Source of the DNA: a virus | Length of the DNA: 31,808 nucleotides | Direction: 5' to 3' (one strand) | Virus record (IMG/VR): IMGVR_UViG_3300027933_000039 | Part shown: piece after piece, positions 1 to 28,860 of the stretch | How positions within the stretch are numbered: the first letter of the stretch is position 1 | Layout of the letters: each line of letters opens with the position of its first letter | Notes under the pieces: generated by a model | Seen by the model: only the letters and a program-made list of their open reading frames with translations | Database searches by the model: none | Told to the model about the DNA's origin: nothing | Position numbers and translations under genes: made by a program

Positions 1-408
1 TTGGCGACGATTGAGGGACAGCCGATTTCAGTCACGGTGGCAAACACGCCAAGAGTCCTTGCCACGATTGAGGGACAACCCATCTCCGTGAATGTGGCAA
101 ACACCCCATCCGTAAACGTGGCAAACACGCCAAGAGTCCTGGCTACGATTGAAGGGCAACCAATCTCCGTCACCGTGTCGAATACGCCAACGGTACTTGC
201 AACAATTGAGGGACAACCCATCTCCGTTACGGTGTCAAATACGCCCACCGTGTTAGCCACAATTGAAGGACAGCCCATCTCCGTCAACGTGGCAAACACC
301 CCTACTGTGTTAGCGACAATTGATGGTCAACCAATCTCCGTCAACGTGTCGAATACGCCCACCGTTTTAGCCACAATTGAGGGACAGCCCATCTCCGTAA
401 ACGTTACG
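1..408 (+). repeat. Coding tandem repeat, about 7 x 57 bp, with one 24-bp internal partial duplication in unit 2
   Basis: Units start at about 1, 58, 139, 196, 253, 310 and 367. The protein sequence is nearly identical between units and the DNA differs mostly at third codon positions. Confidence 0.95.
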
Positions 409-747
409 GGTGGCACTGTAAACACTGTGGAACAACCTAACGCAACTCTACTAGGACAGGTGGTGAATGGTAGCATAACGGCGAACACAAACATCTTCTC
501 AAACAACTTGTCGATTACACAACCCAGCCGTATCTTCACAGTTGCCGCCGCAGGTGTATCTGGTACGCTAAGCCTGGCGTTAACTGTTGGCACGACAACT
601 GTACGAAACTACTTCAACAGCGGAAACCCATTGAACGCAAACTCGTGGTATGAATTCAGCATAGACTTACCATCAGGAGTGCAAATAAACTACCAGTACA
701 CAAGTAACACGACGATAACAATCCTTGTATTAAGTGAGCCGCTCTAG
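1..747 (+). CDS. Repeat-containing putative virion fibre/spike protein, 5'-truncated by the window edge
   Basis: Seven 19-aa repeats (VLATIEGQPISVxVxNTPx) followed by a ~105-aa T/N/S-rich beta-sandwich-like C-terminal domain. The TTG at position 1 is an internal Leu of the repeat. Confidence 0.6.
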   Translation: MATIEGQPISVTVANTPRVLATIEGQPISVNVANTPSVNVANTPRVLATIEGQPISVTVSNTPTVLATIEGQPISVTVSNTPTVLATIEGQPISVNVANTPTVLATIDGQPISVNVSNTPTVLATIEGQPISVNVTGGTVNTVEQPNATLLGQVVNGSITANTNIFSNNLSITQPSRIFTVAAAGVSGTLSLALTVGTTTVRNYFNSGNPLNANSWYEFSIDLPSGVQINYQYTSNTTITILVLSEPL

Positions 748-1367: not shown

Positions 1368-1562
1368 CTAACATTTCCAATACGCTAATGCACCCGTCGT
1401 TGATACCGTTAAGTTTGTGTATGCCTTATATGTACCCAAGTCAAAGTACTGATATTCCTGTTTTGCGTATTGATGTTGTCCTTGTATCTGCGGGTTAGAA
1501 TCCCCCATCACTTGGAAACACATATCAACAGGGACGTTTACAGTTATCTTTCTAGCCATCAT
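1368..1562 (-). CDS. Small hypothetical protein, possibly a partner of the upstream structural protein (64 aa)
   Basis: 4-nt overlap with ORF 1559..2812; beta-rich, two Cys. Confidence 0.55.
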   Translation of the reverse strand: MMARKITVNVPVDMCFQVMGDSNPQIQGQHQYAKQEYQYFDLGTYKAYTNLTVSTTGALAYWKC

Positions 1563-2812
1563 TCCACCTCCACATAAACCATTCTTCCTAACATATATCC
1601 TATATTAATTCCCCCACCACGTGTCTCTCCCAACCCATACTGAGGATATTGCTCACTATATCCCTCTGCTATGTGATGTAATTCTAAAATAAACTTGGGG
1701 GTTGTATTAGTTAATTGGTATAATTTTGCGTTTCCTACCTGAGCTATATAACTTTGTGTCATGTACGACTGCCAATATTGCCAATTATAATAACCAGCAA
1801 TGAGACTACAGCAACTACCAGTTTGATTTATTAAACCTGCCACAGAAGAAATTGTAAAATTCGCTTGCCATATGGCAGACTCTGGCAAAGATCCATAGCT
1901 CAACATAAATACAATGGTTGGGTTAAATTGAAGTTGATTCGCCCTAAAGAACATAAGTTGATGCGCATATCCTTTCTGAATATTAAATCCACTTACTATT
2001 ATCGATATGTTGTAATACCCTATCAGAACGCTATTATTTGCTGAAACAGAAATAGTAAGAGTGGCATTGGCGTTTCCATCCGATATACTAACTGGAAAAG
2101 CCCTTCCAGCATATATCCCATCTCCATTCGTGTTTAGAACTGTTGTACCATTTTCTAAGTTTATACTTGTAACTCCAGTTGTAATTCCAAATGGGTCATA
2201 GATCCCTACCATCACCCCAAGTCCAAATGGAATCCCGTAATATGGCTGAATAATAGATGGATCGTCATTAATAAATATAATGGATTTAGAAATAGGAATT
2301 TGTACGGTTAGTCCGTTAGTCCCACCATTTAGTAATACAGCAAACATGTATTGAACTTGGCTTATCGTTACTGACGCTGTACCAGTCCCTAGTGTTATGT
2401 CTATTTGTAGCGAATTACCAGCATTCTGTTGGTAGCCCGGCGGAAAACTTGAATAGGGAATTATCTGATTTATTATTAATTGATTACTTGTATTGCTAAT
2501 CGTAGTACTGTAAAGTGTCGTCCCATTCATAACCACGCTTACAGTAGCCGATCCACTAGTAGCCCCAACAGCCAATTTGATATACCCGCTCACCCGAATT
2601 ATGAGGACTAAATAGTTTATGAGAGGATTACTGGACTTGGATGGATAAGGAGTGAACGGGCCATAACTTTTAGCCGTCCCGTTAGCTGATACTGTTACGC
2701 TAGTTGTATCATTGTTGTGCTGGGCTGAAAATTCGTCCCATTCTCCGCCAATCATGATCAGCCTCCTCATTCTCTGCGTATTAAAGCCTTGAACTGGGAA
2801 AGCTATCCCCAT
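1559..2812 (-). CDS. Beta-rich putative virion spike / receptor-binding protein (417 aa)
   Basis: G/S/T/N/I-rich beta-strand composition, about 11 N-x-S/T sequons, no enzyme motifs, SD-like GGTGGG before the ATG. Confidence 0.55.
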   Translation of the reverse strand: MGIAFPVQGFNTQRMRRLIMIGGEWDEFSAQHNNDTTSVTVSANGTAKSYGPFTPYPSKSSNPLINYLVLIIRVSGYIKLAVGATSGSATVSVVMNGTTLYSTTISNTSNQLIINQIIPYSSFPPGYQQNAGNSLQIDITLGTGTASVTISQVQYMFAVLLNGGTNGLTVQIPISKSIIFINDDPSIIQPYYGIPFGLGVMVGIYDPFGITTGVTSINLENGTTVLNTNGDGIYAGRAFPVSISDGNANATLTISVSANNSVLIGYYNISIIVSGFNIQKGYAHQLMFFRANQLQFNPTIVFMLSYGSLPESAIWQANFTISSVAGLINQTGSCCSLIAGYYNWQYWQSYMTQSYIAQVGNAKLYQLTNTTPKFILELHHIAEGYSEQYPQYGLGETRGGGINIGYMLGRMVYVEVE

Positions 2813-4479: not shown

Positions 4480-5157
4480 TCATAGTTTAGGAAGGAGTTT
4501 CATAAGCTCATAGAAATCGTCGATAGTGAGGGAGTAAATAACCTTAGATGATGGATATCGATAACAACGTACTTCGAGTTCGTTTAGATGAATGATTTTA
4601 CCGAAAGCTTCGGGTTTGCTATCACCGATTAATTCATATTCAAGAGCAAGGTTATCATACCAGACTTTACTACAGATATTATCGTCGTAAGGGGCAACGA
4701 GGACTCTAATGTCTTCAGGGCGTGAAACATGGCTTTTAATATATTTTTCGACATATCTATCCGAGACGTAAGGACTGACAGACCAAAACGATAAATAACG
4801 TTGATTTGAAAAGAAACTTGACGAATAAACGTAATCATAGATCAAAGTTATTTTAGTCGTACGATAAATGTATTTATTTTTAAGGTCATAATTGTTCCAT
4901 AAACTAAGAAAATTGGCAAGCCCGGGTATACAGCGAAGGTCGTATTTGATACGTAACCCTGGAATAATTTTATCAACATCAAAAGCGAGTTTAATCATAA
5001 AAGACGAAGCGTCTTCACCATAGCAGGATTCAAGGTAGTCACGATAATACAAAGTAAGAGGATAGACTCTTCTCCACTGTTCCAAAAGAGGTAACTTGGA
5101 AATTACATCATTAACGATATCTTGATACCGCACCACATCCTTAAAATGTCGCTCCAA
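4480..5157 (-). CDS. Putative ADP-ribosyltransferase (R-S-E clade)
   Basis: Motif order YIYRTT ... LSFWSVSP ... VLV ... LEYELI matches ART beta1-Arg, the S-x-S motif and ExE. The real start may be GTG at 5136 or 5133. Confidence 0.5.
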   Translation of the reverse strand: MERHFKDVVRYQDIVNDVISKLPLLEQWRRVYPLTLYYRDYLESCYGEDASSFMIKLAFDVDKIIPGLRIKYDLRCIPGLANFLSLWNNYDLKNKYIYRTTKITLIYDYVYSSSFFSNQRYLSFWSVSPYVSDRYVEKYIKSHVSRPEDIRVLVAPYDDNICSKVWYDNLALEYELIGDSKPEAFGKIIHLNELEVRCYRYPSSKVIYSLTIDDFYELMKLLPKL

Positions 5158-5738
5158 GTTATAAAATATTTATAAGTCTCACGGAAGTAACATAGAATCA
5201 TTGTCCTGGTACTCATTCTTAATGTAGTTTCAAGGTCTTTGACGATCGTCCACTTATCCCCACATATAACGATCTCGTTATTTGACGATATGCTCCCGAC
5301 CTGGACATCATTTAAATAAATTTTGTTATTGGAAACGATAACTGGAGTATAAATCGAACCTATAGCATTACAGGGTATCGATTGAGAAAGAGGGATGTGG
5401 ACGGGAGAGAAACTGATCTTCGATTCGTCTACCTGGATTCCAAATTTCTCTATAATGTCAGTAGGAATGAAAGAGAGGTACTCGGCAGAGCTCCCAACCA
5501 TGAAACCCAACATCTTCCAGAGGTCTTCGATATTATCATAAGTCAAGTAATAAAGAGGAGTGACCTTACTCGTAGAAGGATAAACGACTATACGTGTTGC
5601 AAAAGTAGGCAGTATAAAGTAAATTGGTTCAAACGAATCGAATATGGCGTCGTAAGCCTCTATACCGTTAGGGGTGTAAATAGTACCTGAAACGTAGTAC
5701 CTATTCCCTGACTCTACGACGAAAAGTTGTACTTCCAT
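5103..5738 (-). CDS. Hypothetical beta-rich protein (211 aa)
   Basis: Long ORF whose start overlaps the stop of 5738..5926; no recognisable motifs. Confidence 0.65.
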   Translation of the reverse strand: MEVQLFVVESGNRYYVSGTIYTPNGIEAYDAIFDSFEPIYFILPTFATRIVVYPSTSKVTPLYYLTYDNIEDLWKMLGFMVGSSAEYLSFIPTDIIEKFGIQVDESKISFSPVHIPLSQSIPCNAIGSIYTPVIVSNNKIYLNDVQVGSISSNNEIVICGDKWTIVKDLETTLRMSTRTMILCYFRETYKYFITWSDILRMWCGIKISLMM

Positions 5739-6285: not shown

Positions 6286-6681
6286 TCACATATTCTCTGG
6301 GGCGACTGGGAACGGATAGCTGAATTGTCCTTTCTTCAGGTAGTAATTCTCTCCCCATATCAATTTCCTATTATTCTCCGCAAACCCTGTCGCCATGTTA
6401 AACACAGCACCGATCACTCCGCTACCCCTCATACTTACCGTAAGGGTGTTTATGACGTTGTTAAACCTGTCATCAATCACCATCCTACCTAACGCCTGTC
6501 CCTGTCCGATACCAGGTGGGTTATAACCAAACGGGTGTGGGGACTCTATGACGTTAGGACCAAAAGGTATGACCTCTGGTCCATTTGGTGTCCCTTGCCT
6601 GTAAAACCTTCTAGTACCATACCTCATAGGTGTTATTTCGCATGGGAGTATAAAAAAATCACGTTCAGACTCTTGGGGCAA
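6286..6681 (-). CDS. Hypothetical Pro/Gly-rich protein (113-131 aa)
   Basis: Directly follows and overlaps the UbiA-family gene; alternative ATG at 6627. Confidence 0.6.
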   Translation of the reverse strand: MPQESERDFFILPCEITPMRYGTRRFYRQGTPNGPEVIPFGPNVIESPHPFGYNPPGIGQGQALGRMVIDDRFNNVINTLTVSMRGSGVIGAVFNMATGFAENNRKLIWGENYYLKKGQFSYPFPVAPENM

Positions 6682-7615
6682 AGTCCGTATTCCACAGGTA
6701 CTTATTCATCAAAACGAAGTAACCAAGCCCAATAATTACCAACAAGAGGAAGTAGATGGATGGAAGAATTGTCAAAACCCTGAAGAACTCGAACGCCTCA
6801 GCCATTCCAAAATACCTCAACATCTTTAGACGGTCGCTATACTCAACATGTACGTGGTAAACTGAATAAGCCTCAAGTAGTGTAAAGGTTACAAACAATA
6901 ACGTGTTAGAAATCTCGTGAGGAAGGAGAATAAGGATTAACAAACTGTCTATCAACAGCCTATCCAACATAAAAAACAACTCAAACAGTTTTGACTTCTT
7001 GCCCTCACTGTAAATACCATACCTAGAGTAAAGGTTGTCCTCATGCGAAGAGTCCTTCTTGTTACCCTCGTACGCAATTTGATAGAAGATGACATTCACC
7101 CCCAGTAAGAAGAAGACTAACATTAGGAATTGGCTACTACTTTGGAGAAGGAGTGAATAGACCGTTAACGAGGCGAACGATATGGAGATTGGTATCCACG
7201 AGTGAAGGGATACGTGATCCACCCCGTCGTTGTAAACATGCCCAAAAACAACGTAGAGTAGCAAAAAGACGAGGGAGAATAACCTGCCCGTGTAGAGGGT
7301 TAACAAGATTAAGGAGATGGCAGAGATAACCTGTAATAGGTTTACAGCTTTTACAGCCTCATCATACTTTATTCTTCCGGAGGTTAACGGGTGGTGTACC
7401 TTATTCTCATCCTTCAAATCGTGGTAGTAATCCATAACACTGTTATGCCCAAATGATGAGTAGTGTACCAGTAAGCCCACAAGTACTAAGGGTAAGACTA
7501 ACCCTCTTCCTCCTGCATACATGTATGGTATTAACAACGTGTAGATTGTGGCAAAAGCCGTCTGTGCCCGGAATAACTGTAACCAGTCACGTATCGACCC
7601 TTTTACGAGACGCAT
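6665..7615 (-). CDS. UbiA-family intramembrane prenyltransferase
   Basis: Multiple transmembrane segments; first Asp-rich motif NSVMDYYHD followed by KVHHPLTSGRI (cf. NxxxDxxxD...RPLxSGxI); VYND and YEGNKKD in second-motif positions. Confidence 0.8.
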   Translation of the reverse strand: MRLVKGSIRDWLQLFRAQTAFATIYTLLIPYMYAGGRGLVLPLVLVGLLVHYSSFGHNSVMDYYHDLKDENKVHHPLTSGRIKYDEAVKAVNLLQVISAISLILLTLYTGRLFSLVFLLLYVVFGHVYNDGVDHVSLHSWIPISISFASLTVYSLLLQSSSQFLMLVFFLLGVNVIFYQIAYEGNKKDSSHEDNLYSRYGIYSEGKKSKLFELFFMLDRLLIDSLLILILLPHEISNTLLFVTFTLLEAYSVYHVHVEYSDRLKMLRYFGMAEAFEFFRVLTILPSIYFLLLVIIGLGYFVLMNKYLWNTDFAPRV

Positions 7616-7690: not shown

Positions 7691-9133
7691 ATGGTACATA
7701 TTTCAAAAAAGGTTATTGACCTTGTTGGTAGCAAGGTTAACACAATACCAGTCATTGTACAAACCACTCCTGAAAAGCTGGATGAAATCGCGAAGGTGTA
7801 CATGAAGGTCGATAACGGACCTTTGAACGGGTTAAGGCTATCTAAAATATCCTACGTTAGAAAGATTCCAACCTTCAGTATGTTCTCCACAGTGTTAACA
7901 CCAAAGGAGGTTGACGCATTATCACAGGACAGTAACGTTGTCGCAATCTACTACAATGGTAGGAATAGAATCCTCTCATCCGTACCGCAAATGCCAACTA
8001 AGGTTACACAAACTTACAGTCTACGTGAATTACACAACCCCTACGGTGACACCTTTACCACAAGTGTGTACACGACTAAAATGATTGGTGTGGATACCCT
8101 CAATAAACTGGGTTACCAGGGCGGAGGAGTAAAGGTGGCGATTATTGACACGGGTTTAGCCTTACGCCACCTACAAATGCCTACAGAGGGTGGGTTTAGG
8201 TTAGGGCATTACTCAAGCGTATTCCCGTGGGGTCTCCTTGACACTACTGGGCATGGGACTTGGTGTACCCTATTGATTGCCGGAAGGAAGACAGTCTCAA
8301 CCCTTATGGGATTGAGGAGTAACCTATTCCCAATAGGTGTGACTGGGATTGCGAGTAAGTCAAGTTGGATGGCGATAAAGGGGCTGGATTACATAGTGGG
8401 TACGGGTACGGATTCGGACTTAATCTCAGCGTTTGAGATTGCCTATAACCAGGGTGTAAAGGTTTACAGCAACAGTTGGGGTGGTACACCACAGAGTGAC
8501 GACCCAACGGACTCACCCTTCTACCCAGTCCTGGAGAGGGTGACACAAAGTGGGGGAATACCGGTGTTTGCCGCAGGGAACAGTGGCCCTGGTTGTGGTA
8601 CAATAGCATCTCCGGGTGACCTACCACAGTCGTTAACCGTTGGTGCGTGGGATGAAATAAACGGTAACCTAGCCACCTTCAGTAGCAGAGGTCCGACAAC
8701 CTTCAACAGTGTTAAGCCAGATGTTGTTATGCCTGGTGTGAATATACTAAATGGTATAACTGGTTGGCTAACCCTTCTATACCAACACTTACCGTCCAGG
8801 TTTGACGCATTGAGTGGTACTAGTATGGCTACGCCGCACATGGCTGGTTTCGCCGTATTGATGGCTGAGGTGTACAGAAAGGTTTTGGATAAGGAGCTGA
8901 CTACGATCGAGATAAAGAGGATGATGTGTAGCTGGGCTAAGGAGAGCGGCTTTACGAGGAGTTACATGGCTAACGACAAGTGTGATAGAGATAGGGATGG
9001 TCTAGTTGGTAATGATGGCCTACCAAATGAATGCCTAGAGACTAAAAGTAATGAGATAGGCTGGGGTATGCCAACCTTCAACGTACTTAACTGGTGGCTG
9101 GAGACCGAGTATTCGACAAGTTTACAAGGTTGA
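7691..9133 (+). CDS. Subtilisin-like S8 serine protease with an I9-like prodomain and no signal peptide
   Basis: Catalytic motifs VAIIDTG (D), GHGTW (H), AAGNSG (oxyanion N) and GTSMATPH (S); SD GGGGTG. Confidence 0.95.
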   Translation: MVHISKKVIDLVGSKVNTIPVIVQTTPEKLDEIAKVYMKVDNGPLNGLRLSKISYVRKIPTFSMFSTVLTPKEVDALSQDSNVVAIYYNGRNRILSSVPQMPTKVTQTYSLRELHNPYGDTFTTSVYTTKMIGVDTLNKLGYQGGGVKVAIIDTGLALRHLQMPTEGGFRLGHYSSVFPWGLLDTTGHGTWCTLLIAGRKTVSTLMGLRSNLFPIGVTGIASKSSWMAIKGLDYIVGTGTDSDLISAFEIAYNQGVKVYSNSWGGTPQSDDPTDSPFYPVLERVTQSGGIPVFAAGNSGPGCGTIASPGDLPQSLTVGAWDEINGNLATFSSRGPTTFNSVKPDVVMPGVNILNGITGWLTLLYQHLPSRFDALSGTSMATPHMAGFAVLMAEVYRKVLDKELTTIEIKRMMCSWAKESGFTRSYMANDKCDRDRDGLVGNDGLPNECLETKSNEIGWGMPTFNVLNWWLETEYSTSLQG

Positions 9134-9202: not shown

Positions 9203-9589
9203 TTAATATCTGGGACCAAATCTGTAGACCCTCACTGATCCTGAGGTACCTGCGGGACCAGTTGGTGGTCCTCCACCACCAGCCGTGCCGGTACCGATAC
9301 CGAAAGCCTGGCTGAACTTTGTGTACCACCTGTTCTGGTTGGCCGCATTTTCCACACCATCTTTAAATGCATCCTTGTAGGCATTGGGGTCATTTGCAAA
9401 GTTCTTGTAGTTGGTAACATGAACATTGGCTTCGGATACAGCCTGCCCGAAGAAGCTTGTTAGACCCGCAACATAATTATTAGCGTATTTCTTAACGTTA
9501 GTGGCCCAGATATCAGCCGCGGCTAAAGTATTGGTTTCCCACTTCTGTGCGGCTTGTTGTGGATTAGATTTTGCTCTACCGCCTGGCAT
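9203..9589 (-). CDS. Putative major DNA-binding virion (nucleocapsid-like) protein, helical with a Gly/Pro tail (128 aa)
   Basis: N-terminal GRAKS..QKW..., Ala/Asn-rich amphipathic helices, its own TATA-like region (TTTATTAACCTTAAAT) and its own terminator; reminiscent of helical DNA-wrapping capsid proteins of crenarchaeal viruses. ATG 9589 preferred over GTG 9598. Confidence 0.45.
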   Translation of the reverse strand: MPGGRAKSNPQQAAQKWETNTLAAADIWATNVKKYANNYVAGLTSFFGQAVSEANVHVTNYKNFANDPNAYKDAFKDGVENAANQNRWYTKFSQAFGIGTGTAGGGGPPTGPAGTSGSVRVYRFGPRY

Positions 9590-9627
9590 GTTCTCCACTT
9601 AATACTTAGATTTAAGGTTAATAAAGA

Positions 9628-10344
9628 TTAGGTTCGAGATTCATCCTTTTCGTTCCTCATCTCCCTCAATCTGTACAGGAAGGTGTTATCGACCTCATTT
9701 ATCTTTTTCACAAGCTTCAAACCGTTAAGGTATCTGAAATCAGTAAACTTGTCAGCCACCGTCATTAATTGCACAAACCTCAACAACTGTAGCCCGTAAT
9801 AGTTACGTATACCCGTATCCCACAAGGTATATAACTCGTCCTTATCCACGTTGTCAAACACACCAGTATTAAAAGCCTGTATTAACAACGTTTTGTAGCT
9901 AACGTCGGAAACGACCTGCCCTCCAACCACAACCTTCCACCAATTCCTAACCTTCACTCCTCTAGCCTCAAAGAATGACAATGGTGGTGTGTCAACCCAT
10001 ATCGTCTGTACGGAATACCTTGGTCTATCCTCCTCGATAACCACTAATCCCCTCTCCTTAAAGGGCTTATCAGTCCCATCATACCAGTATGAGGGATGAT
10101 CCAAGTGTAACACAACCTTGTTACCGTCGAAGTCCAGTTTTGGGTAGTCCTCATACCTATCCAGTGTGATACAAACGTAGCCTAACTCCTCACAAGCCTT
10201 CCTTATCGAGTAAGTCTTCCCACTGCCAGTATGCCCAACAACCTGTATTACGTTTTCGTTTGCCAACTCCTGCTTTATCCTGTCTATTGCCCTGGGCCTA
10301 AACGTTGTATCCTTTGGTTTAGATGTGGAGGACAATTCTATCAC
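9628..10344 (-). CDS. Short AAA+ ATPase, clamp-loader large-subunit (RFC-L)-like
   Basis: Walker A GHTGSGKT followed by ACEELGYVCITL (cf. RFC-L AxExGxExxEL); degenerate Walker B (LHLDH); located next to RFC-S. Confidence 0.6.
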   Translation of the reverse strand: MIELSSTSKPKDTTFRPRAIDRIKQELANENVIQVVGHTGSGKTYSIRKACEELGYVCITLDRYEDYPKLDFDGNKVVLHLDHPSYWYDGTDKPFKERGLVVIEEDRPRYSVQTIWVDTPPLSFFEARGVKVRNWWKVVVGGQVVSDVSYKTLLIQAFNTGVFDNVDKDELYTLWDTGIRNYYGLQLLRFVQLMTVADKFTDFRYLNGLKLVKKINEVDNTFLYRLREMRNEKDESRT

Positions 10345-11891: not shown

Positions 11892-14071
11892 TACTCCCAC
11901 AACTCCAGTGTAATATCGTTTGTTATTCCCAAATTCTTGAATGGTCCTTCAATGACCGACTCAATCTGCCTCTTCCAATCCACAATAGGCTTTGGTAACC
12001 CGTCATCAACAACACACACATCCGCTGAGATTCCGTTTTCGTAACCCTTACACCAAACGTACCTTATCCTACTACCATAACCATAGTTTTTGTTAAAGTA
12101 TTTGTTAGCCAGGACTGCCGCTCTAACGTGTGGTGGAAGGGTTTTGTACTCGTCAATTCTCCTCGTAATACCCCTATACAAAGCCACGTCCTCCAAGGGC
12201 AACTCCTTTATCTTTCGTATGAAGTCATTCTTAACCTGTATTACCTCAGTCATGGGTCTTCCATCAAGTAACAACTCAAACACCTTCTCCTCCAATTCCT
12301 GAGTAATCTTGGACGAATCTGTCCTTATCGCCTCAAATCCCTTAATGTCAATCTCGTTAACCTGTTTACCCTTCTTCCACACAACCTTAGCCGCATACCT
12401 TTTCTTCACCCCAGTGAAATAGACAGCCCCTAGGTACTTCTCAAACTTTAGGCTTAAGGTAGGTTCGGACTTCAACGAGTACTTCTCCATGAAGTATCGA
12501 CGTAGATCATTTGTCAACTGTTTGGATAATTCCTCCGCCTTCTCGAAGGGTACTTGTATGAATACGCTGTCTGTGTCACCGTACAACGTTTTGTAGCCGT
12601 AACGTTTGGACTGTTCAATAACGTACTGTATACCCTCCCTAGCCAACGCCGTTATTGTACTTGCACAATCCCTGTCGTAAAACCTAGCCTGCGGATGCCC
12701 CATGTAACCGTAGGTTGAGTTTATTATGTATTTTAAAGCCATCACCTTCTTTTCCAAAGTTTTATACTCCTCGCTATCACCAGGGTACTTTTTCATCTCA
12801 TCCTCCACCTCCTCCCTCCTCTTCAGTAGAATCATAGCTAACTTGGGCATTAGCCCCGCCTTGTCCTGCCTAAAAGCCCATATCTCATCAGTAATACGAT
12901 TTAACTTTGTCTCTGGAGACACGTTGAAACTAATGATGATGGATGGGTAATACCTTGACATATCCAGGACTGCAACGTTCTCATACCTTCCCGATGGTGG
13001 GTTTAACACAATTGCACCCCTAATGGGGTTTTCATCCCTATCGACGCTAGTTGGCAACACTACACCCTCTCTCTTCGCCAACCTAAGTAGTAAAGTGTCA
13101 ATCACAATACTCGTGTAATACTGGAATGAGAAGTCCTCCACACCAACTACGTTCTTTAAAGCTTGGTAGTAATCAACAATTGAATACTTTTTATCTATCA
13201 TCACAATCCTCCATACATCACGAATGTTGTAACGTATTATCTCGTTGGGGTTTTTGGTAACCTTCACAAACTCCACTGCCTCCTCTTTCTTCTCCAATCC
13301 CTCCGAAACAGTTACCTCCTTCAGCTTATAGCTCCTTGCCCTAACAAACTCCTTATAACCGGAGAGTAAATCCAACTCCAACCATCCGTTGTAAGTAAAC
13401 TTAACGTTGAGGTGTTTTGCCCTAGCGTAAAGGTACCTCATGTCAAAACTAACATTCCAAGCCGTAACAATATCCACATCCTTTATTAGGTTGTAAACCT
13501 CCTGTATCAAGTCCTTTTCGTTAGTGAAACTACGGGCGTGGAGGTACAAAACGTACTCCTTATTGTTTGCAGTTAGCTTGTAGTAACCAGTCCTTTCCTT
13601 TGCCACATCATTCAGGTAATAGGCGTGATAATCACCCTGTATGTGTACTGTCACAGCAACAATCTTGTATATGGGGTTTTCCTCAGAGGGTAATTCGCCG
13701 TTCTCATTATCCACCTCAATGTCAATATAGGCAACGACGGGCTTAATCGTACAAGGTTTTGCCTCAAGTGTGTCAATGTCATGGCATTCCTGTATATCCT
13801 TGTCTATGAGGTACCTTCTCACGTAGGGTATATCAGCCTCGTAATGCCTCTCGTACTTCTCCCTAGCAGTCCTTACATCAATGGGAGTGTTAACGTAAAC
13901 CCTATCCAGTGGCTCACCAAACACACTCCTGTACACTCCAAGTTTTGACGGTACGTAGAAGAATGGCCTGTACTGGTAAACTTTGTACTTTTTACCACTC
14001 TCAGTCCTCCACCAAATGCCTATATCCCTCTCATTCACAACACGACTAGTTATGTACAAACCAACCGTCAT
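11891..14071 (-). CDS. polB: Family B DNA polymerase, RNA-primed archaeal type
   Basis: ExoI DIEV, ExoII WNVSFD, ExoIII YNIRD; motif A DMSRYYPSII, motif B KYIINSTYG, motif C YGDTDS; KKRY; C-terminal PIP-like DITLELW. ATG 14071 overlaps the dpdA stop. Confidence 0.98.
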   Translation of the reverse strand: MTVGLYITSRVVNERDIGIWWRTESGKKYKVYQYRPFFYVPSKLGVYRSVFGEPLDRVYVNTPIDVRTAREKYERHYEADIPYVRRYLIDKDIQECHDIDTLEAKPCTIKPVVAYIDIEVDNENGELPSEENPIYKIVAVTVHIQGDYHAYYLNDVAKERTGYYKLTANNKEYVLYLHARSFTNEKDLIQEVYNLIKDVDIVTAWNVSFDMRYLYARAKHLNVKFTYNGWLELDLLSGYKEFVRARSYKLKEVTVSEGLEKKEEAVEFVKVTKNPNEIIRYNIRDVWRIVMIDKKYSIVDYYQALKNVVGVEDFSFQYYTSIVIDTLLLRLAKREGVVLPTSVDRDENPIRGAIVLNPPSGRYENVAVLDMSRYYPSIIISFNVSPETKLNRITDEIWAFRQDKAGLMPKLAMILLKRREEVEDEMKKYPGDSEEYKTLEKKVMALKYIINSTYGYMGHPQARFYDRDCASTITALAREGIQYVIEQSKRYGYKTLYGDTDSVFIQVPFEKAEELSKQLTNDLRRYFMEKYSLKSEPTLSLKFEKYLGAVYFTGVKKRYAAKVVWKKGKQVNEIDIKGFEAIRTDSSKITQELEEKVFELLLDGRPMTEVIQVKNDFIRKIKELPLEDVALYRGITRRIDEYKTLPPHVRAAVLANKYFNKNYGYGSRIRYVWCKGYENGISADVCVVDDGLPKPIVDWKRQIESVIEGPFKNLGITNDITLELWE

Positions 14072-15060
14072 AACCAACCCTCCACGTTCTCCATGTATGA
14101 CACGTAATCGTAAAGTCCCTTATCCTTCAACATCACATCAATTGAGTCTGAGTTGTACAAATTGTAAACGTGGTCATAGAAATCCAGCAACCTCCACAGG
14201 TTGTGTAGTGTTAGTTTTACATACCAATTAATGTCTATGTAAACGTCCTTCGTAAAATTAAACCTAGTACAGACTGGACAGTGACACCTAACCTCAGACG
14301 AATACCTCTTACCAATGTAGATAGCCGAATTCTGTGTGTAAAACCTTCCGTATGCCGCCGCCATGCTGTACTTGCTACTATCCATACTTATTAACTCGAA
14401 GTAATTCCTCTTCAGTAAAGCCGAACTAATTAGCATTGCACCCTCGTTACCAGCACCAAGTAAGTGTATCTTTTTAACACCGTTTTGGTAAAGGTATAGC
14501 ATTTGCCTAACCATGGTGGAGTAATTTGTGGTTGGTCGAAAGGCTATTGCCACACCCTCAAGGTCATCTACGTAATCTCTTATTGCGTACTTGTACCAAA
14601 TTTCAATCTGTTCTAAAGTATCGCCGTGTAGGATACCCCACAGTGGCTTATCCACCTTATCCAACATAATCTTGTTATTTTTACCAGTCATCTTGGCATA
14701 ATCCTCAATCTTCTCCAGACTAACAGTCTCCATAGTGTCGTTAACTCCTGCAGGTGCGTAGTCCAAACTTAAAGCCCAGTCCGCATACTCGTTCTGAAAG
14801 TCGATCAGCTCATTGATATTTACGGGCAAACCTATAGTAAAGGTTTGCAACCCCCCACTATCAACGAAGACGAAGGCGTTACAGTCATTCAACAACTCCT
14901 TCCTTAACTTAGCCTTAGTTTGTTTGGCAGAGCCATAGGATAGCATTACCTTCTTGTATGCTATTGGCGATTCGTCACACCAGTAAATCATATCCTTTGG
15001 CAAACTGTGTAGTACCGCTAAGTAACTACCCGTGATAGCAGGAAAGAAGTACAAATTCAC
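14068..15060 (-). CDS. dpdA: TGT-fold base-exchange enzyme, DpdA-like (7-deazaguanine insertion into DNA)
   Basis: VDSGGLQ, ALSLD, GILHG, IHLLG, SMDSS, Zn site CHCPVC...HN; 330 aa with no PUA domain; lies between folE and polB. Confidence 0.8.
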   Translation of the reverse strand: MNLYFFPAITGSYLAVLHSLPKDMIYWCDESPIAYKKVMLSYGSAKQTKAKLRKELLNDCNAFVFVDSGGLQTFTIGLPVNINELIDFQNEYADWALSLDYAPAGVNDTMETVSLEKIEDYAKMTGKNNKIMLDKVDKPLWGILHGDTLEQIEIWYKYAIRDYVDDLEGVAIAFRPTTNYSTMVRQMLYLYQNGVKKIHLLGAGNEGAMLISSALLKRNYFELISMDSSKYSMAAAYGRFYTQNSAIYIGKRYSSEVRCHCPVCTRFNFTKDVYIDINWYVKLTLHNLWRLLDFYDHVYNLYNSDSIDVMLKDKGLYDYVSYMENVEGWL

Positions 15061-15539
15061 TGGCTACACCTCCTTGTAACCATAACACTGTTATTCCGTA
15101 TTCCTCTCATTAACACACAGTAGTGTTTACCAGTAACCACAACACTTAGCCGCTTTGGCTGAAGACAGGAATAGAGTATCTCGTAAAGCAAGTTAGTGTA
15201 TTCCTCCTGTACTCTGGGATACCTGGCTAAGTCCCTTGCTATTCTACTAAACTTCGACATACCCAGTATCCTTCCGTTGGGTACGTACACGATCTCTATC
15301 TTCATGTCCACCGGAAGGAAGTGATGGGGGCATAACATGTACGTGTCATTAACCACAATCTTAACCTCTCCTTGGTGGTTGCTTGGAAAGGTCACACAGT
15401 ACTTCTCCTTTATCTCCTCCAGAGGGATAAGGGTAGTATACTCCTCAAGCCACCTCTGCATCCTCAATGGTGTCCTGTTGAAGTGTGGGTCGCTTAAATC
15501 TACGTTTTTAAATACGTCAATAGCCCCTTTCTCTTCCAT
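15057..15539 (-). CDS. folE: GTP cyclohydrolase I
   Basis: TPLR, LCPHHFLP, GMSKFSRI, RVQEE, HYCVLMRG. Confidence 0.95.
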   Translation of the reverse strand: MEEKGAIDVFKNVDLSDPHFNRTPLRMQRWLEEYTTLIPLEEIKEKYCVTFPSNHQGEVKIVVNDTYMLCPHHFLPVDMKIEIVYVPNGRILGMSKFSRIARDLARYPRVQEEYTNLLYEILYSCLQPKRLSVVVTGKHYCVLMRGIRNNSVMVTRRCSQ

Positions 15540-16200
15540 GTGCCACCACGTGTATCTGTAAGTATGCCTTGAACATTGTATACCTTTGACTTACGAGGTC
15601 AAACAACCTCGTAAACATGTTGAGGTCACTTGTGGTTACGTAGATGGGGTAATCCCTTAGTAACATGGCGTAGTCCTGCAGTATTTCATCCAAATCCTCC
15701 GGTAGCTTACTCGTTACGAACTTAAATATCGTCCTATCTGGGCTATACTCGTTATTGGCATACCTGTAATTCACCCCTGAGCTCCTCAGCTTTGGAGAGA
15801 CAGCCCAGTAAACCTTGGAGTGATCACTGTTCAATGCCTTCTGTATCTCCTCGGGTATTCTAACCGTGCCATTCGTCTCTATCACAAACGCCTCAAATTT
15901 ATTGTACAACTTTTTGTACAATGCATAAACTTGCGTTATGTACATCGTAGGCTCCCCACCCGTTATCACAAGCACTCTAATTCCCTTCTGCCTACTTACA
16001 TCATCCACCCACTTTGCTATACTGTCAATATCTCGTAAAGTATAGTCACCCGTATCGTAGCTGTACTTAGTATCACACCAAACACACCTTAAGTTACAGC
16101 CGTAGAACCTAAGGAAGGTTGATGGGTAACCCCACAACGGTGGCTCGCCGTTAATACTGGTGAACACCTCGTTGACCGGTAACGCATCAGTTGACGGCAT
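15517..16200 (-). CDS. queE: 7-carboxy-7-deazaguanine synthase (radical SAM)
   Basis: EVFTSINGE, FLRFYGCNLRCVWCDT (CxxxCxxC), ITGGEP, ETNG, VSPK. Confidence 0.96.
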   Translation of the reverse strand: MPSTDALPVNEVFTSINGEPPLWGYPSTFLRFYGCNLRCVWCDTKYSYDTGDYTLRDIDSIAKWVDDVSRQKGIRVLVITGGEPTMYITQVYALYKKLYNKFEAFVIETNGTVRIPEEIQKALNSDHSKVYWAVSPKLRSSGVNYRYANNEYSPDRTIFKFVTSKLPEDLDEILQDYAMLLRDYPIYVTTSDLNMFTRLFDLVSQRYTMFKAYLQIHVVAHGRERGY

Positions 16201-16202
16201 GG

Positions 16203-16613
16203 CTATTCCACCACCACATTGTAGTCTATTCTGGATTTATCGTTTTCTTCCACCTTTATGGAGTAGGACTGTACTTTAGCCTTCCTACTGTTCACCTTCT
16301 TTATTATCTCTCCAAAGGGTATGGTAGATTCAAGGTACATGGCAAGTCTTTCTGCTGATGCGTTATCCCCAACGTAATCGTTTAACGACTTGTGATCAAT
16401 CCTATCAATCACTGGTTTCACATACTCATCAAGCTCCGTAAAGTCCATATAATAACCTACATCTGGCAATTCAGTAATAGCGGCTGTAAGGCAGATTGTT
16501 ATCAAGTAGTTATGCCCATGTAGATTACGGCATTTAGTGTCGTATGCCAACGCTATCCTATGTGCCATGCTAGCCCTGTAATCTTTACAAATCTCTAGTA
16601 TCCTTTGCGTCAT
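16203..16613 (-). CDS. queD: 6-carboxy-5,6,7,8-tetrahydropterin synthase
   Basis: AHR, CRNLHGHNY, MDF, DHKSLND, SAERLA. Confidence 0.95.
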   Translation of the reverse strand: MTQRILEICKDYRASMAHRIALAYDTKCRNLHGHNYLITICLTAAITELPDVGYYMDFTELDEYVKPVIDRIDHKSLNDYVGDNASAERLAMYLESTIPFGEIIKKVNSRKAKVQSYSIKVEENDKSRIDYNVVVE

Positions 16614-23633: not shown

Positions 23634-25007
23634 TTACATCACTGGATCTTTCAATCCATTTATCTCGAACGCCTTCTTTCTCATAAAACACGGACCACAC
23701 TTACCACAGTGTTTCTTCCTCCCCTCATAACAACTCCACGTGATCTCGAAGGGTACTTTCAGTTCGTAACCTAGCCTGACAATCTCATGTTTCATTAGAT
23801 TGCCAACCGGCATTAACAACCTTATTCTCCTTCTTGGTTCCGTTGCCAACGGTAAAACCCTGTCCAACAAGATGTTAAACTCCATCTCATTATCAGGATA
23901 GGCACCTGACTCCTCCAGGTTTATCCCAGTACCAACGGCGTCAAACCCGTTAGCCTCAGCCAACGCCACTGCGACACTAACGAAGACTAGATTTCTAGCT
24001 GGTACCCATTCGTATGCGTACTCTGCCCCAACAATTCCTCCCCTATCCTTCGCTATTGGTATTTTACTACCCTTAAGCAAGTTAGTCCCTCCAATAACCT
24101 TAAACATGGAGGAGGTATCCATTGTAATCAACTCAAGGTTGTAATACTCCGAGATCTTCTTTACAGCTGTGAGCTCAGGTCCCTCAGCCTTGTGATGATA
24201 ATTAAAGTGTAGTAACGTAACCTTATGCCCCCCATTCAGTAGTTTTGCCGTAGCCACAGTACTATCAAGCCCTCCACTAGCTATCATTAACACCTTCATC
24301 TGTTCAGCCGTCTTCAACAGGTTATACTTTGTAAAGCTATCTTGTGAGAAACAATACATCGTATAAGGTTCGACATACGTTGTGTTCACCTTACTGTAAA
24401 CCTCACGGGGATAGTACCTCTCCAAGGACGTGATGACTAAGTAATTATTCTCAAAGTCGTTATGTATGTAGGCGGGCTTATAGTCAACACTAACGCATAA
24501 CTCTCCCCTCCTCACATTTGTGAAGACCATGGCGTGTGATCCCCTAAACTCCTCCGAGAGGAATCTGCTCACACCCTCATAAGACCCAATCCTTGAGAAT
24601 ATACGTGGTAAGACTGCACTGTCGATGTTTGTATCCAGTATTAAACCGTACTTCTGTATCAACTCCTTATCGTTAGCAACCACACCGTTGTGTGAAACAA
24701 TCCAGTCGTTATATTGGAAGGGTTGGATATCCTTTGGGCTTTTGTTAGGTACGTACTCCGTCGTTGGCTCAGCCCTATTATTCCCTATAATCATCTTGGG
24801 CTTCATCCTAATCAGGAAGTCCTTGACAATGTCGTAGTCAGGTGTACCAGTACCCTTCAACACCTCAACCTCACCATTCTCCCTTATGGCGTAAATTCCC
24901 CAGCTATCCCTTCCTCTGTCTGAACTATCTACAAAGGATTTGGAGATCTTACTTGCCTTCTTGTCATCCAACTCCTCACGGATGTAGACACCGAATATGC
25001 TACACAT
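23634..25007 (-). CDS. queC: Gat-QueC fusion: Ntn glutamine amidotransferase plus preQ0 synthase (archaeosine-base forming)
   Basis: N-terminal MCSIFG, RGRDSWG, QPF, HNG; QueC SGGLDST, VPARN, YPDN, TWSCY, CGKCGPC. Confidence 0.95.
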   Translation of the reverse strand: MCSIFGVYIREELDDKKASKISKSFVDSSDRGRDSWGIYAIRENGEVEVLKGTGTPDYDIVKDFLIRMKPKMIIGNNRAEPTTEYVPNKSPKDIQPFQYNDWIVSHNGVVANDKELIQKYGLILDTNIDSAVLPRIFSRIGSYEGVSRFLSEEFRGSHAMVFTNVRRGELCVSVDYKPAYIHNDFENNYLVITSLERYYPREVYSKVNTTYVEPYTMYCFSQDSFTKYNLLKTAEQMKVLMIASGGLDSTVATAKLLNGGHKVTLLHFNYHHKAEGPELTAVKKISEYYNLELITMDTSSMFKVIGGTNLLKGSKIPIAKDRGGIVGAEYAYEWVPARNLVFVSVAVALAEANGFDAVGTGINLEESGAYPDNEMEFNILLDRVLPLATEPRRRIRLLMPVGNLMKHEIVRLGYELKVPFEITWSCYEGRKKHCGKCGPCFMRKKAFEINGLKDPVM

Positions 25008-25206: not shown

Positions 25207-26289
25207 ATGAAAGAAAAGGTAATGATTGCGTCAGATGGGCCAAACTTTAACACGGGTTACGGAAAACTTGGTAGAGTTTTAACGAATGGGCTGATAGCAA
25301 ACGGTTACGATGTCTCATACGTGTCATTCCAACATCAAGGTAATCCTCTTTACTATATTTTTATGAACCAAAAGGTCAAGGTTTACAGTGGTTTAACCCA
25401 ACAACTGATTGAGGAGGCGGTGAGAGAGTTTAAGCCCGATGTACTAATACACATAAGGGATCCGGTAGTACACACGGAATACTACAAGTATCCATATCAA
25501 TTCGACAGGATAAGGAAGAGTACAAAGACTATAGGATATTTAATGGTTATGCACGACTACTTCGACTCCAAGGTAATGAAGGCAATTGTTGTTAATTATG
25601 ATATCGTTGCAACCCCAACGGAATGGGGCAGGAGAGTACTAGTATCGTCTGGTATGCCGATCAACCTAGTGTACACCGTTAAACCGTGGATACCCAGGCC
25701 AGTAAAACCGGAGAAGGTACAGGGGCTTCCGGATAAATACCTTCTGTTCATAGGTGTGAATGACGATAGGAGAAAGAACCACGCACTCCTATTACACGTT
25801 TTAAGCAAGTTACCAGAGGAATACAAACTGGTTTTACTAAGTGGTAGCGGTGCGTACATACTTGAGAGTATTATAGAGAGATATGCCTTGTACAACAGAG
25901 TTTACACACCCCAATCTTATCTGAAAGGTTACGGTCTTACGGAGGAGGAGTTGGCGTACATTTACTTGAATGCACACGTATACGTAACCTTATCCTCCCT
26001 GGAGGGGATAGACATGCCGGCGTTAGAGGCGTTAACCTATAACACCCCAGTGGTTGCAAGTGAAATACCAGTCCACAAGGAGTTACTATCCCCTTACGCA
26101 AAATTTGTGAAGGTTAACCTTGGTTACCCTGATACGAGCGGAGTGTACTGGATTCCAGACGTGGATGACGCAGTGGAGAAGATAATGTCAATAGGAGGGG
26201 TAAGGCATAAATATGGGAGGAAGGTGTACTCGACTTACAATGTAAATAGGGCGATAAGTGACTTCAGACAACTATTTAATCTCGCTTGA
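25207..26289 (+). CDS. GT4 (GT-B fold) glycosyltransferase
   Basis: TGYGKLG, RKNHA, HVYVTLSSLEGIDMPALEALTYNTPVVAS. Confidence 0.9.
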   Translation: MKEKVMIASDGPNFNTGYGKLGRVLTNGLIANGYDVSYVSFQHQGNPLYYIFMNQKVKVYSGLTQQLIEEAVREFKPDVLIHIRDPVVHTEYYKYPYQFDRIRKSTKTIGYLMVMHDYFDSKVMKAIVVNYDIVATPTEWGRRVLVSSGMPINLVYTVKPWIPRPVKPEKVQGLPDKYLLFIGVNDDRRKNHALLLHVLSKLPEEYKLVLLSGSGAYILESIIERYALYNRVYTPQSYLKGYGLTEEELAYIYLNAHVYVTLSSLEGIDMPALEALTYNTPVVASEIPVHKELLSPYAKFVKVNLGYPDTSGVYWIPDVDDAVEKIMSIGGVRHKYGRKVYSTYNVNRAISDFRQLFNLA

Positions 26290-26503
26290 GCAACGTGATC
26301 TTCTCGGGTCTTGTCTCCTCAAGTTTAACTAGTTTAATGTCGTAACCGTACTTTTTAGCAGTTGGTACAACAAAGTTGTTGACGAAGTTTAGAAAGTCCA
26401 GTCCATCATCAAAATGAAGGGAGAGTGTGGAGACTTGTGTTGACTCCATTGAGGGTATACCATCCTTAATGGACAGACTACCGTTATACGCAAACCACTT
26501 CAT
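26276..26503 (-). CDS. Hypothetical protein (75 aa)
   Basis: ATG about 25 nt downstream of AACTTTTAAGCC (26523-26534). Confidence 0.65.
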   Translation of the reverse strand: MKWFAYNGSLSIKDGIPSMESTQVSTLSLHFDDGLDFLNFVNNFVVPTAKKYGYDIKLVKLEETRPEKITLLKRD

Positions 26504-26533: not shown

Positions 26534-26881
26534 TTAAATGTTACCAACCCTTCCATATACGAAGTAGTAGCCTAAGGTTACACTCACGAAACCACCATCA
26601 GTCCTCAAACCTAGGTATTTTGAAGGACCTATCCTCAATACTCCCTCGTCGTGCTGTTCAACATAGGTTGGCGAGGAAGGTGTAACGGTTACCTCCTGAA
26701 TCACTACAGTACCACTATAAATCTGTAATGTAACGGTACCTAAACCAGCTGATGAGTCCAGGCTGAGCTGTATCTTGTTAACAACTATGGACTGGTTATT
26801 CATTGTTGACGCAACTGTCGCCATCACCGTACCTACGAGATACCTACTGTAAATTATATCGTAAACCTGTACCTCATCCAC
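26534..26881 (-). CDS. Small beta-sandwich putative virion protein (115 aa)
   Basis: Beta-strand composition; lies in the capsid-candidate operon. Confidence 0.55.
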   Translation of the reverse strand: MDEVQVYDIIYSRYLVGTVMATVASTMNNQSIVVNKIQLSLDSSAGLGTVTLQIYSGTVVIQEVTVTPSSPTYVEQHDEGVLRIGPSKYLGLRTDGGFVSVTLGYYFVYGRVGNI

Positions 26882-27629
26882 TTCCTATCCCCTCCTTTAT
26901 CACTTTCAATGCATCATCCTTGGTACTATTTAACACAAGGCTAGGTTTTATTGGTGTTACTCCGTAGGTGTTATACTCGTTAATCGTGTACGATGAGGCA
27001 CCACCAACGATCAACTTTTTCGTGTTCTCCCTTGTAAACATGTCATAAACAATCTCCGTATTTGTTATCTTATCCACGATCATCCTATTTACGACAAACC
27101 TAAAGAGGGGAGATATTGGGACTGTAGTGGGGTTGACTAGACCGAACGCAACCTCAAGACCGTATGGGACTGCAATTTGCGTATATGGGCTAGGATTATT
27201 AAGCGGGCTTTGGTATCCGTCAATAAAGCCAAATTGGTTGTAGCTGGAGTTCCACGTCGCAACGTCAAGTCTTCCCTGTGCAACGTTTGCAGGTTGGTAG
27301 ATGTAGACACGTGTGTAGCTTGGTGCTACACCGAAGAATAACTGTAGAAGGTTGTTTGTCTTATCAACCTTGAAGACGTCGTTTGGATTGCCAGTTATGT
27401 ATTTAGATCCGAACAGGACGTCAGTGGCAATCGTCAAACTTGTAATACCATTTCCCTGAGGACTTGCCGCTAACGGAGACTGTAACGCACCCTCAGTTAC
27501 AGGATCGTAGATAAAGCTGTAGGGAATGTCACCGTCTACGACTACTAGAGGGACGTAACCTTGTGGAAAGACCAGAAAAAATTTGTCACTTGGCTTTAAA
27601 AGGTAATTGTCTAGATTCATAGCCCTCAC
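26874..27629 (-). CDS. Putative virion (second capsid or penton-type, jelly-roll-like) protein (251 aa)
   Basis: Beta-rich, with G/P-patterned motif GFIDGYQSPLNNPSPY...GLVNP; downstream of the capsid candidate. Confidence 0.4.
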   Translation of the reverse strand: MRAMNLDNYLLKPSDKFFLVFPQGYVPLVVVDGDIPYSFIYDPVTEGALQSPLAASPQGNGITSLTIATDVLFGSKYITGNPNDVFKVDKTNNLLQLFFGVAPSYTRVYIYQPANVAQGRLDVATWNSSYNQFGFIDGYQSPLNNPSPYTQIAVPYGLEVAFGLVNPTTVPISPLFRFVVNRMIVDKITNTEIVYDMFTRENTKKLIVGGASSYTINEYNTYGVTPIKPSLVLNSTKDDALKVIKEGIGSG

Positions 27630-27636
27630 ATAATTC

Positions 27637-27978
27637 TTAGTTACCCTCCACTAATAAGGTTATTACACCGTTTATAGTCCCTGTCGGAGCCTCTTCCACC
27701 ACTCCACCGGAGATTTGTTGTACGTATATGTGTATTCCATTTGTCTGTGGGGCTTGCTTCCCAACGGTACCGGTACTTAAACCAGTATTTACAACGGCAA
27801 CGTGGTAAGCAACCGTATTAACGTTACTCTGTACACCAAGAACACCGGCGTTAGTAACAGCCTGCAACTTACTGGAGAGGATTATCACTCCTCCCTGTCC
27901 TGCAACATAATAAACGTTACTAAACTTCTCTATACTAAGTTTCAAGTTACCTTGATTAACGCTATAGGGAACGCTCAT
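27637..27978 (-). CDS. Small beta-rich putative virion protein (113 aa)
   Basis: V/G/T-rich strands; second gene of the capsid-candidate operon. Confidence 0.55.
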   Translation of the reverse strand: MSVPYSVNQGNLKLSIEKFSNVYYVAGQGGVIILSSKLQAVTNAGVLGVQSNVNTVAYHVAVVNTGLSTGTVGKQAPQTNGIHIYVQQISGGVVEEAPTGTINGVITLLVEGN

Positions 27979-27987
27979 TTAGATCGC

Positions 27988-28695
27988 CTAAGTTTGTTGT
28001 AGTAAGTAGGATCCTTTAGCAAAAGTTAGTCCGAATAACTGCAGGTTACTGGGTCCAGTGGCAACCACGTTACCATAGACGGTGAGGTTGGTGTTCACAC
28101 CTACGTAAACCAGTCCTGGGAATTTGTAGTAGTACACGTTTGACATCGGAAGGTAGGAGGCGGACTCAACCATATAGGTGGTATTCTCAACCCTTACTTG
28201 GTACTCACTAACCTTTGGAGGAAGGGTGTCGATCATTCCGAGTATGGCAAGGGCAACCGTATTCTGCAGTTGTGTAGCCCCACCGTTTGCAAGCCCAGTC
28301 TGTCCAGTATTAACATTGAAGATTGGTTGCCATCCAGTCGTAGTGAAATTCCTATACCAAGAAAGCTGTGGTGTCTGTCCTGGGGCTATGTTGGTATTCA
28401 TTACAGTTACAGCCCTTATCAACTGCATTCCTATCTGTGAGGAGGAGGTTGCGGCAAGACCTGCGAAACTGGACTGCGGTGCAAGCTGTGCCACAGCCTG
28501 TTGAGCGGTAGAAGCCAGGACATCGCTATACTTTAACAAGATTTCTCCTAAGTCCCTTTGCAAAGCCGGCATTTCCGCCAACGTTGCCAGATCCCTTATG
28601 AATATCTCCTGCTCCTCTTGTGTAAATGCCCTACCAGTGATCTGGTTTGAGGCAGAGATTACCAGCGGTCCTACACTTTGGGTAGGGGTACTCAT
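27988..28695 (-). CDS. Putative major capsid protein: helical N-terminus plus single jelly-roll-like domain (235 aa)
   Basis: About 75-aa helical arm, then about 8 beta-strands (IGMQLIR, SWYRNF..TGWQPIF, LAILG, EYQVRV, YYKF, LTVYG, LQLFGLTFAK); first gene of an operon with its own TATA box. Fold assigned by recall only. Confidence 0.5.
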   Translation of the reverse strand: MSTPTQSVGPLVISASNQITGRAFTQEEQEIFIRDLATLAEMPALQRDLGEILLKYSDVLASTAQQAVAQLAPQSSFAGLAATSSSQIGMQLIRAVTVMNTNIAPGQTPQLSWYRNFTTTGWQPIFNVNTGQTGLANGGATQLQNTVALAILGMIDTLPPKVSEYQVRVENTTYMVESASYLPMSNVYYYKFPGLVYVGVNTNLTVYGNVVATGPSNLQLFGLTFAKGSYLLQQT

Positions 28696-28720
28696 GTTTT
28701 CACTAAAGTTACAAGTCTTT

Positions 28721-28729
28721 GTTAAAAAT
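28721..28729 (-). promoter_or_regulatory. TATA box (ATTTTTAAC) of the capsid-candidate operon
   Basis: 26 nt upstream of ATG 28695; the leader ends GTGAAAACATG, similar to GTGGAGAACATG before 9589. Confidence 0.6.
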
Positions 28730-28860
28730 ATATTGATTATGTTCTCGTACCCTCACATGTTCACCCAATGATAAATTGTGGAGAAACATGTTCGGAGAAT
28801 ACGTAGTGGCGGGAGGAATTCAACCAAAAGTAGATATTTTCCAAACAACAAAACTTTCCA

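Follow-up and report, generated by a model that had tools for sequence, protein, structure and literature searches.

A conserved four-gene cassette of an uncultivated hot-spring archaeal virus as a candidate single-jelly-roll virion shell

The virus record IMGVR_UViG_3300027933_000039 in IMG/VR, from an uncultivated archaeal virus of a Yellowstone hot spring, was analysed over its full 31,808 nucleotides (nt), referred to here as the window. Four adjacent genes in it, the cassette, encode proteins of 235, 113, 251 and 115 amino acids (aa), and the question that they raise is what kind of particle such a virus might build. An earlier reading of the letters, here called the original prediction, had proposed a jelly-roll-type virion operon combined with a replisome of the virus's own. 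The 41 open reading frames (ORFs) of the window, spread over 31.8 kb, were screened against Pfam and PHROG, and none of the four cassette proteins has a match in either. The best explanation, for which the chances appear about even, takes the cassette products, two single-jelly-roll-type proteins and small accessory proteins, to be the building blocks of the shell of a non-tailed virus.

The four-ORF operon of the original prediction was confirmed on the minus strand. The first gene encodes the 235-aa protein P0001 (27988..28695), a candidate major capsid protein with a single jelly roll in its predicted structure. It is followed by the gene for P0002 (113 aa, 27637..27978), a Gly/Thr/Val-rich protein that keeps its position in alignments of relatives and is a candidate minor shell or cementing protein. 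P0003 (251 aa, 26874..27629) is a candidate second jelly-roll capsid protein or penton, again from its predicted structure, and P0004 (115 aa, 26534..26881), a small beta-type protein that the alignments place as a conserved downstream partner, is a candidate minor shell protein. The spacing between these genes is 9, 7 and -8 nt, the 115-aa gene overlapping the 251-aa gene by 8 nt. The 251-aa ORF begins at a GTG; gene callers and homologs start three codons in, at an ATG at 27620, which gives 248 aa. The last gene of the unit encodes a 75-aa protein (26276..26503, minus strand) with homologs in five of eight compared loci. It starts 30 nt past the cassette, and its end overlaps the end of a convergent GT4 glycosyltransferase gene. 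Profile-profile tests detected no paralogy between the 113- and 115-aa proteins or between the 235- and 251-aa proteins.

A TATA-like box, ATATATTTTTAA, is read in the sequence at 28722..28734 (minus strand), about 30 nt upstream of the ATG of the 235-aa gene. A box about 30 nt before the start codon is the usual layout for leaderless crenarchaeal transcripts. As a putative promoter, the box seen here would drive co-transcription of the cassette genes, and the resulting mRNA would have a short leader or none. The expectation that the operon has its own promoter is supported to the extent that a TATA-like box is in the right place. The end originally given for the locus, 28729, cuts through this box.

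More than 25 contigs in metagenomes of Yellowstone and other thermal sites carry homologs of the cassette. When the window is compared with the divergent loci, the four cassette proteins are the only genes in common; their order is kept and they are 27-54% identical to the window copies. A relative from the same subgroup has about 70% DNA identity to the window; its 235- and 251-aa proteins are 81% and 78% identical to those of the window, which places them among the best conserved. An exhaustive HMMER search with a profile of the 251-aa family retrieved 241 clusters (defined at 50% identity) with E<=1e-3, of which 113 also pass E<=1e-10, and all of the members are about 210-290 aa. A few are in metagenome-assembled genomes (MAGs) labelled Calditenuaceae, Bathyarchaeia and Micrarchaeaceae, and this scatter over different phyla fits mobile DNA. 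Neither the 235-aa protein nor the 251-aa family gave a match when IMG/VR was scanned, and none of these contigs is an IMG/VR entry. Downstream of the cassette is either the 75-aa protein or a 178-aa protein, whose family takes the slot in divergent relatives; homologs of the 75-aa protein directly follow the cassette in close relatives and are located elsewhere in L006 and L010.

The remaining gene content of cassette-bearing elements is variable, including a SNF2 helicase and a methylase in L011, ParB in L012 and an integrase in L006. The replisome of the window is a trait of its subgroup, not of the whole cassette-bearing group. Three of the divergent relatives encode Mrp/NUBPL-type P-loop NTPases (PF10609) close to the cassette (L006:1294-2544, L010:1050-1691 and L031:6877-7467), with no homolog in the window. 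The 53.9-kb contig of L031 encodes a full-length aromatic amino-acid lyase (HAL/PAL, E 8.5e-166) at L031:3460-4992, at a distance of 5 kb upstream from the cassette. The gene may be auxiliary, or it may belong to host DNA next to an integrated element.

Predicted structures of the two large proteins agree with the beta-rich character that had been ascribed to them. The model of the 235-aa protein, predicted from a 9-sequence alignment (pLDDT 76, pTM 0.77), has three N-terminal helices (residues 26-71) and then a beta-sandwich of about 10 strands. The model of the 251-aa protein (pLDDT 68) is a beta-sandwich with C-terminal helices, was the one good model of five and leaves residues 111-148 unmodelled. 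In these models both proteins resemble capsid-type jelly rolls, with weak fold matches that are closest to SPV1. The structural comparison with SPV1 VP4 and the Halopanivirales that the original prediction had proposed is answered in part: the models are jelly-roll-like and SPV1 is nearest in fold, but Foldseek found no match in the PDB at E<=1e-3 for either protein. The weak PDB rows are jelly rolls for the most part.

The capsid assignment depends on these weak fold matches. The fold search of BFVD was non-discriminating, the BFVD and ESM features of the 251-aa protein are non-specific (fibres, C1q, discoidin/CBM32), and the ESM neighbours of the 235-aa protein are unnamed virus-labelled clusters at 0.97, also non-specific. 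When 142 members of the 251-aa family were scanned against PHROG, a single one matched a PHROG annotated 'tail fiber'. Searches of PDB sequences with the single proteins and with profiles A2, A3 and A4 gave nothing meaningful, and a tblastn search of 50,697 records of phages and archaeal viruses, a set that does not include SPV1 (KY780159), gave no match to the 235- or the 251-aa protein.

The best-conserved motif of the 251-aa family is YNQFGFIDGYQSPLNNPSP (G..DG..SP...P, residues 134-146; window 27186-27242 covers residues 130-148). Its G, S and P are nearly invariant over the 142 members, and it sits in the only long low-confidence stretch of the model.

Among described viruses the nearest in fold is SPV1 of the Portogloboviridae, which has a circular genome of about 20 kb and encodes no polymerase (PMC8459092). 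The genome studied here is at least 32.9 kb and encodes a family B DNA polymerase (PolB), a clamp loader like the RFC small subunit, ribonucleotide reductase (RNR) and DNA-modification genes. Its likeness to SPV1 (VP4 and VP10; PDB 6oj0) is in predicted fold only, there being no sequence similarity, and the four-gene architecture of the cassette has not been described for SPV1. The basic 131-aa protein that is the candidate for a VP1-type nucleocapsid protein has no PDB sequence match and no VP1 homolog was found; the window likewise yielded no CRISPR-like repeat family and no mini-CRISPR array. The original prediction of an enlarged, replication-autonomous relative of non-tailed icosahedral archaeal viruses holds for the fold-level likeness to SPV1, but it extends to neither sequence similarity nor replication, the replisome being found only in the subgroup.

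The Halopanivirales of the Helvetiavirae (HHIV-2, SH1, P23-77) combine two single-jelly-roll capsid proteins with a packaging ATPase and infect halophiles and Thermus. Their fold match is weaker than that to SPV1, there is no sequence similarity, and their hosts and habitats are different. No FtsK/HerA-type ATPase is next to the cassette in the window or the other loci compared, and because no ATPase is linked to the cassette the pattern of this order is not reproduced. The double-jelly-roll Varidnaviria markers, the STIV-type capsid family PF22405 and an A32/B204-like ATPase, were not detected in the window by sequence profiles, which leaves some room for a strongly diverged double jelly roll in the 417-aa protein described below; the PF22405 Pfam model does find its target in the STIV-like element L032, which serves as a positive control. 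With the Turriviridae, only an adsorption-type gene is common, and the STIV-like L032 is without the cassette. For the helical SIRV2-fold capsid protein that wraps A-form DNA in the Adnaviria (rudi-, lipothrix- and tristromaviruses), no ORF of the window has a Pfam, PHROG or PDB sequence match, including that of the 131-aa helical protein, and only accessory genes are common with this realm. These are adjacent genes for 225 and 211 aa at 4480-5738 (minus strand), which are homologs of SIFV gp67 and gp68 (53% and 40% identity; phrog_11741 and phrog_31381). The 225-aa, gp67-type family is also present in Acidianus betalipothrixviruses.

The Caudoviricetes hallmark set of large terminase, portal and HK97-fold capsid protein was not found among the 41 ORFs, although the ends of the genome are missing; the earlier claim that such genes are absent from 32 kb stands, with no family match. 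The sole PHROG row labelled 'terminase' is a Walker-A match (E 6.7e-5). The rest of the window was also inspected for packaging genes, and it has no terminase and no ATPase adjoining the cassette. The only candidate for a packaging ATPase in the window is a P-loop protein of 238 aa, encoded last in the replication operon (9628-10344, minus strand), whose matches are confined to the Walker-A regions of PilB/VirB11, ABC and terminase-like ATPases.

The main rival reading, possible but less likely, is that the cassette is a virion-surface module, such as a vertex complex, a spike base or a lectin-like receptor binder, and that the true capsid or nucleocapsid protein is encoded elsewhere. One capsid candidate would then be the basic 131-aa helical protein (9203-9598), and instead of an icosahedron the particle could be enveloped-spherical, ellipsoid or filamentous. 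Rapid divergence is the rule for receptor binders, which tend to change faster than other proteins, but the cassette genes are the best conserved of the group and its only universal ones; the hypervariable gene is instead that of a 417-aa protein, a likely adsorption protein. The 131-aa protein is without a homolog in the other loci, Pfam, PHROG, NCBIfam and PDB sequences, the last including solved archaeal nucleocapsid proteins. In addition, the best structural matches of the cassette are to capsid jelly rolls, not to lectins.

A non-viral role is improbable. The cassette would in this case encode a cell-surface or intracellular beta-sandwich polymer, such as a protein compartment or fibres of an Ena-like or thread-like type, and would travel on plasmids or integrative elements of thermophilic archaea. 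The scatter of the family over MAGs labelled with different phyla, which fits mobile DNA, speaks against this. Export of the cassette proteins is not predicted, because none of them has a signal peptide, a pilin-type leader or a transmembrane segment. The window carries genes typical of viruses, namely PolB, RNR, the Gat-QueC/QueD/QueE/FolE/TGT-like set and the SIFV gp67/68 homologs, and one of its proteins is common to an STIV-like element. The cassette was not found in species-representative genomes at the stringency used.

That the window derives from a tailed archaeal virus of HK97 type, with its head and tail genes on an unassembled remainder, is hardly credible: the window is incomplete at both ends and 'Uroviricota' is the automatic label on ESM neighbours of the 235-aa protein, but its 31.8 kb have no match to terminase, portal, HK97, protease-scaffold, tube, tape-measure or tail proteins, independently assembled close relatives end at similar sizes and places (31.5, 29.5, 29.8 and 23.3 kb), and the divergent relatives likewise have no terminase, portal or HK97-type genes around the cassette.

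If the cassette does encode a virion shell, the virus would be an uncultivated, non-tailed one that infects thermoacidophilic archaea, and the cassette products would form the core of its shell. Two of them, of 235 and 251 aa, would be single-jelly-roll-type capsid proteins, the former like SPV1 VP4 in fold and with an N-terminal helical arm, and the 113-, 115- and 75-aa proteins would be minor or cementing components. Since none of the cassette proteins has a signal peptide, they would assemble in the cytoplasm, into what may be an icosahedral shell, probably over a lipid layer. The UbiA prenyltransferase and glycosyltransferases of the virus would provide lipid and glycan tailoring, a linked S8 protease would carry out processing, and the separately encoded, fast-evolving 417-aa and repeat proteins would serve adsorption.

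The S8 subtilisin-like protease is encoded at 7691..9133 on the plus strand (Pfam Peptidase_S8, E 2e-42). It has no signal peptide and its N-terminus is not hydrophobic. In at least eight loci (L004, L006, L022, L024, L025, L026, L027 and L030) a homolog is directly beside the cassette. The S8 gene is adjacent and divergent to the cassette in many relatives. For a role linked to the virion, S8 is an uncommon class of protease. The protease linked to the cassette is a candidate virion maturation protease.

Isoprenoid genes also recur in cassette-bearing elements, encoding UbiA, polyprenyl synthase and a geranylgeranyl-reductase-like oxidoreductase. They are located at 6665-7615 in the window, where the product is the UbiA prenyltransferase, and at L006:5885-6997, L010:2055-2999, L011:5575-6534, L031:1076-3116 and L031:7866-8810. 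Their recurrence suggests virus-directed lipid synthesis or modification. Glycosyltransferases and adsorption-type proteins recur near the cassette as well, and the window has three glycosyltransferases and one sugar epimerase. Downstream of the cassette in L004 are genes for a fibre-like repeat protein and for a protein of more than 1065 aa, whose N-terminal DUF2341 domain is 39% identical to a structural protein of SIRV1/2/3, presumably the P1070 terminal-fibre protein of rudiviruses.

The 417-aa protein (1559..2812, minus strand) is beta-rich, has 11 N-glycosylation sequons and, from its homologs, is a candidate surface, vertex or adsorption protein. It is hypervariable, with 46 diversified homologs of 38-94% identity. 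One of these, in L032 (10001-11236), is 38% identical over the N-terminal 267 residues and lies in the structural module of the STIV-like element, where its neighbours are the PF22405 capsid gene and a B204-like ATPase. Another, 54% identical (L034:1728-2984), is on contigs binned to Ca. Nanopusillus. L034 and L035 are otherwise unrelated to the window and have in common with it only the 417-aa gene, the 64-aa gene next to it and a repeat-protein C-terminal domain. The 417-aa gene looks like an exchangeable adsorption gene. It was considered as a hidden major capsid protein and rejected, being hypervariable and common to elements that have their own capsid genes; its exchange in the manner of an adsorption module argues against such a role.

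The repeat protein is a truncated product (1..747, plus strand) with 19-aa (57-nt) tandem repeats, repeat families D1 and D2, and a C-terminal domain, which shares 56% identity with a 304-aa protein of L034. The repeat protein has a weak match to a Pfam beta-flower family and may be a fibre or spike. Seven copies of the 57-nt repeat (19 aa, LATIEGQPISVNVANTPTV-like) are present in window 1-400, and related assemblies also end nearby.

The window is incomplete at its 5' end, which breaks within the gene with the 57-nt repeats. At the other end, the sister contig L001 (JGI, 94% identical) continues for 1055 nt beyond RNR, with one extra gene of unrecognised type, and the window together with these 1055 nt gives the known genome size of at least 32.9 kb. 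Circularity was considered and rejected on end overlap, there being none between the ends of the window and the L001 extension.

Of the replication set originally predicted, PolB with an exonuclease domain (E 1.6e-48), the RFC-like clamp loader and RNR (large subunit, class I/II, E 9e-156) were upheld by profile matches, but the candidate ORFs for PCNA, primase and single-stranded DNA-binding protein (309, 237, 268 and 131 aa) have no match in Pfam, NCBIfam or PDB sequences. Further genes of the window encode a PD-(D/E)XK nuclease and an AAA_24 ATPase. A 7-deazaguanine set is made up of FolE, QueD, QueE, Gat-QueC and a weak TGT/DpdA-like protein (14068-16613 and 23634-25007). In place of Gat-QueC, the relative of about 70% identity has a 230-aa protein (L007:8469-9161; L019:5464-6150) that matches only the amidotransferase half, at 41% identity.

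The genes common to SIFV, rudiviruses and the STIV-like element, together with the G+C content of 43%, point to the Sulfolobales virus pool, and the host is probably in or associated with the Sulfolobales. The contigs in DPANN-labelled MAGs (Micrarchaeaceae, Nanopusillus) are a weaker competing hint, MAG labels being weak evidence of host. Nanoarchaeota virus 1 (NAV1) is reportedly an uncultivated Yellowstone virus that occurs in many springs of the park and has a circular genome of 35.6 kb with 52 ORFs. The relatives described here likewise come from several Yellowstone metagenomes; the genome has a size of at least 32.9 kb, and one homolog of the 417-aa protein is in a MAG labelled Ca. Nanopusillus. 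The common genes of the window, with their SIFV, rudivirus-type and STIV-like affinities, point to the Sulfolobales pool. The window genome could be NAV1 or a relative.

It can be suggested, tentatively, that the cassette marks an unrecognised and widespread lineage of non-tailed viruses, at family level or above, with two single-jelly-roll shell proteins distantly related to those of the Portogloboviridae and with diverse replication. The subgroup of the window would within it combine PolB replication, deazaguanine DNA modification and lipid and glycan tailoring. Should the capsid assignment be wrong, the cassette would still be a structural module of hot-spring mobile elements that is highly conserved and has yet to be characterised.

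Two species of SPV1-type viruses are known, which together form an orphan group, and the single-jelly-roll capsids of archaeal DNA viruses are central to ideas on the origin of the double-jelly-roll kingdom. If the lineage is real, it would supply the first relatives for SPV1 and an extra branch for reconstructing the evolution of archaeal jelly-roll capsids. Unusual cargo would also be tied to such a shell: PolB and RNR, all genes of a preQ0-type base-modification set, and enzymes for isoprenoids and glycans. The cassette, conserved, abundant (241 clusters) and unannotated, could serve as a marker gene for viruses of thermophiles that current classifiers miss.
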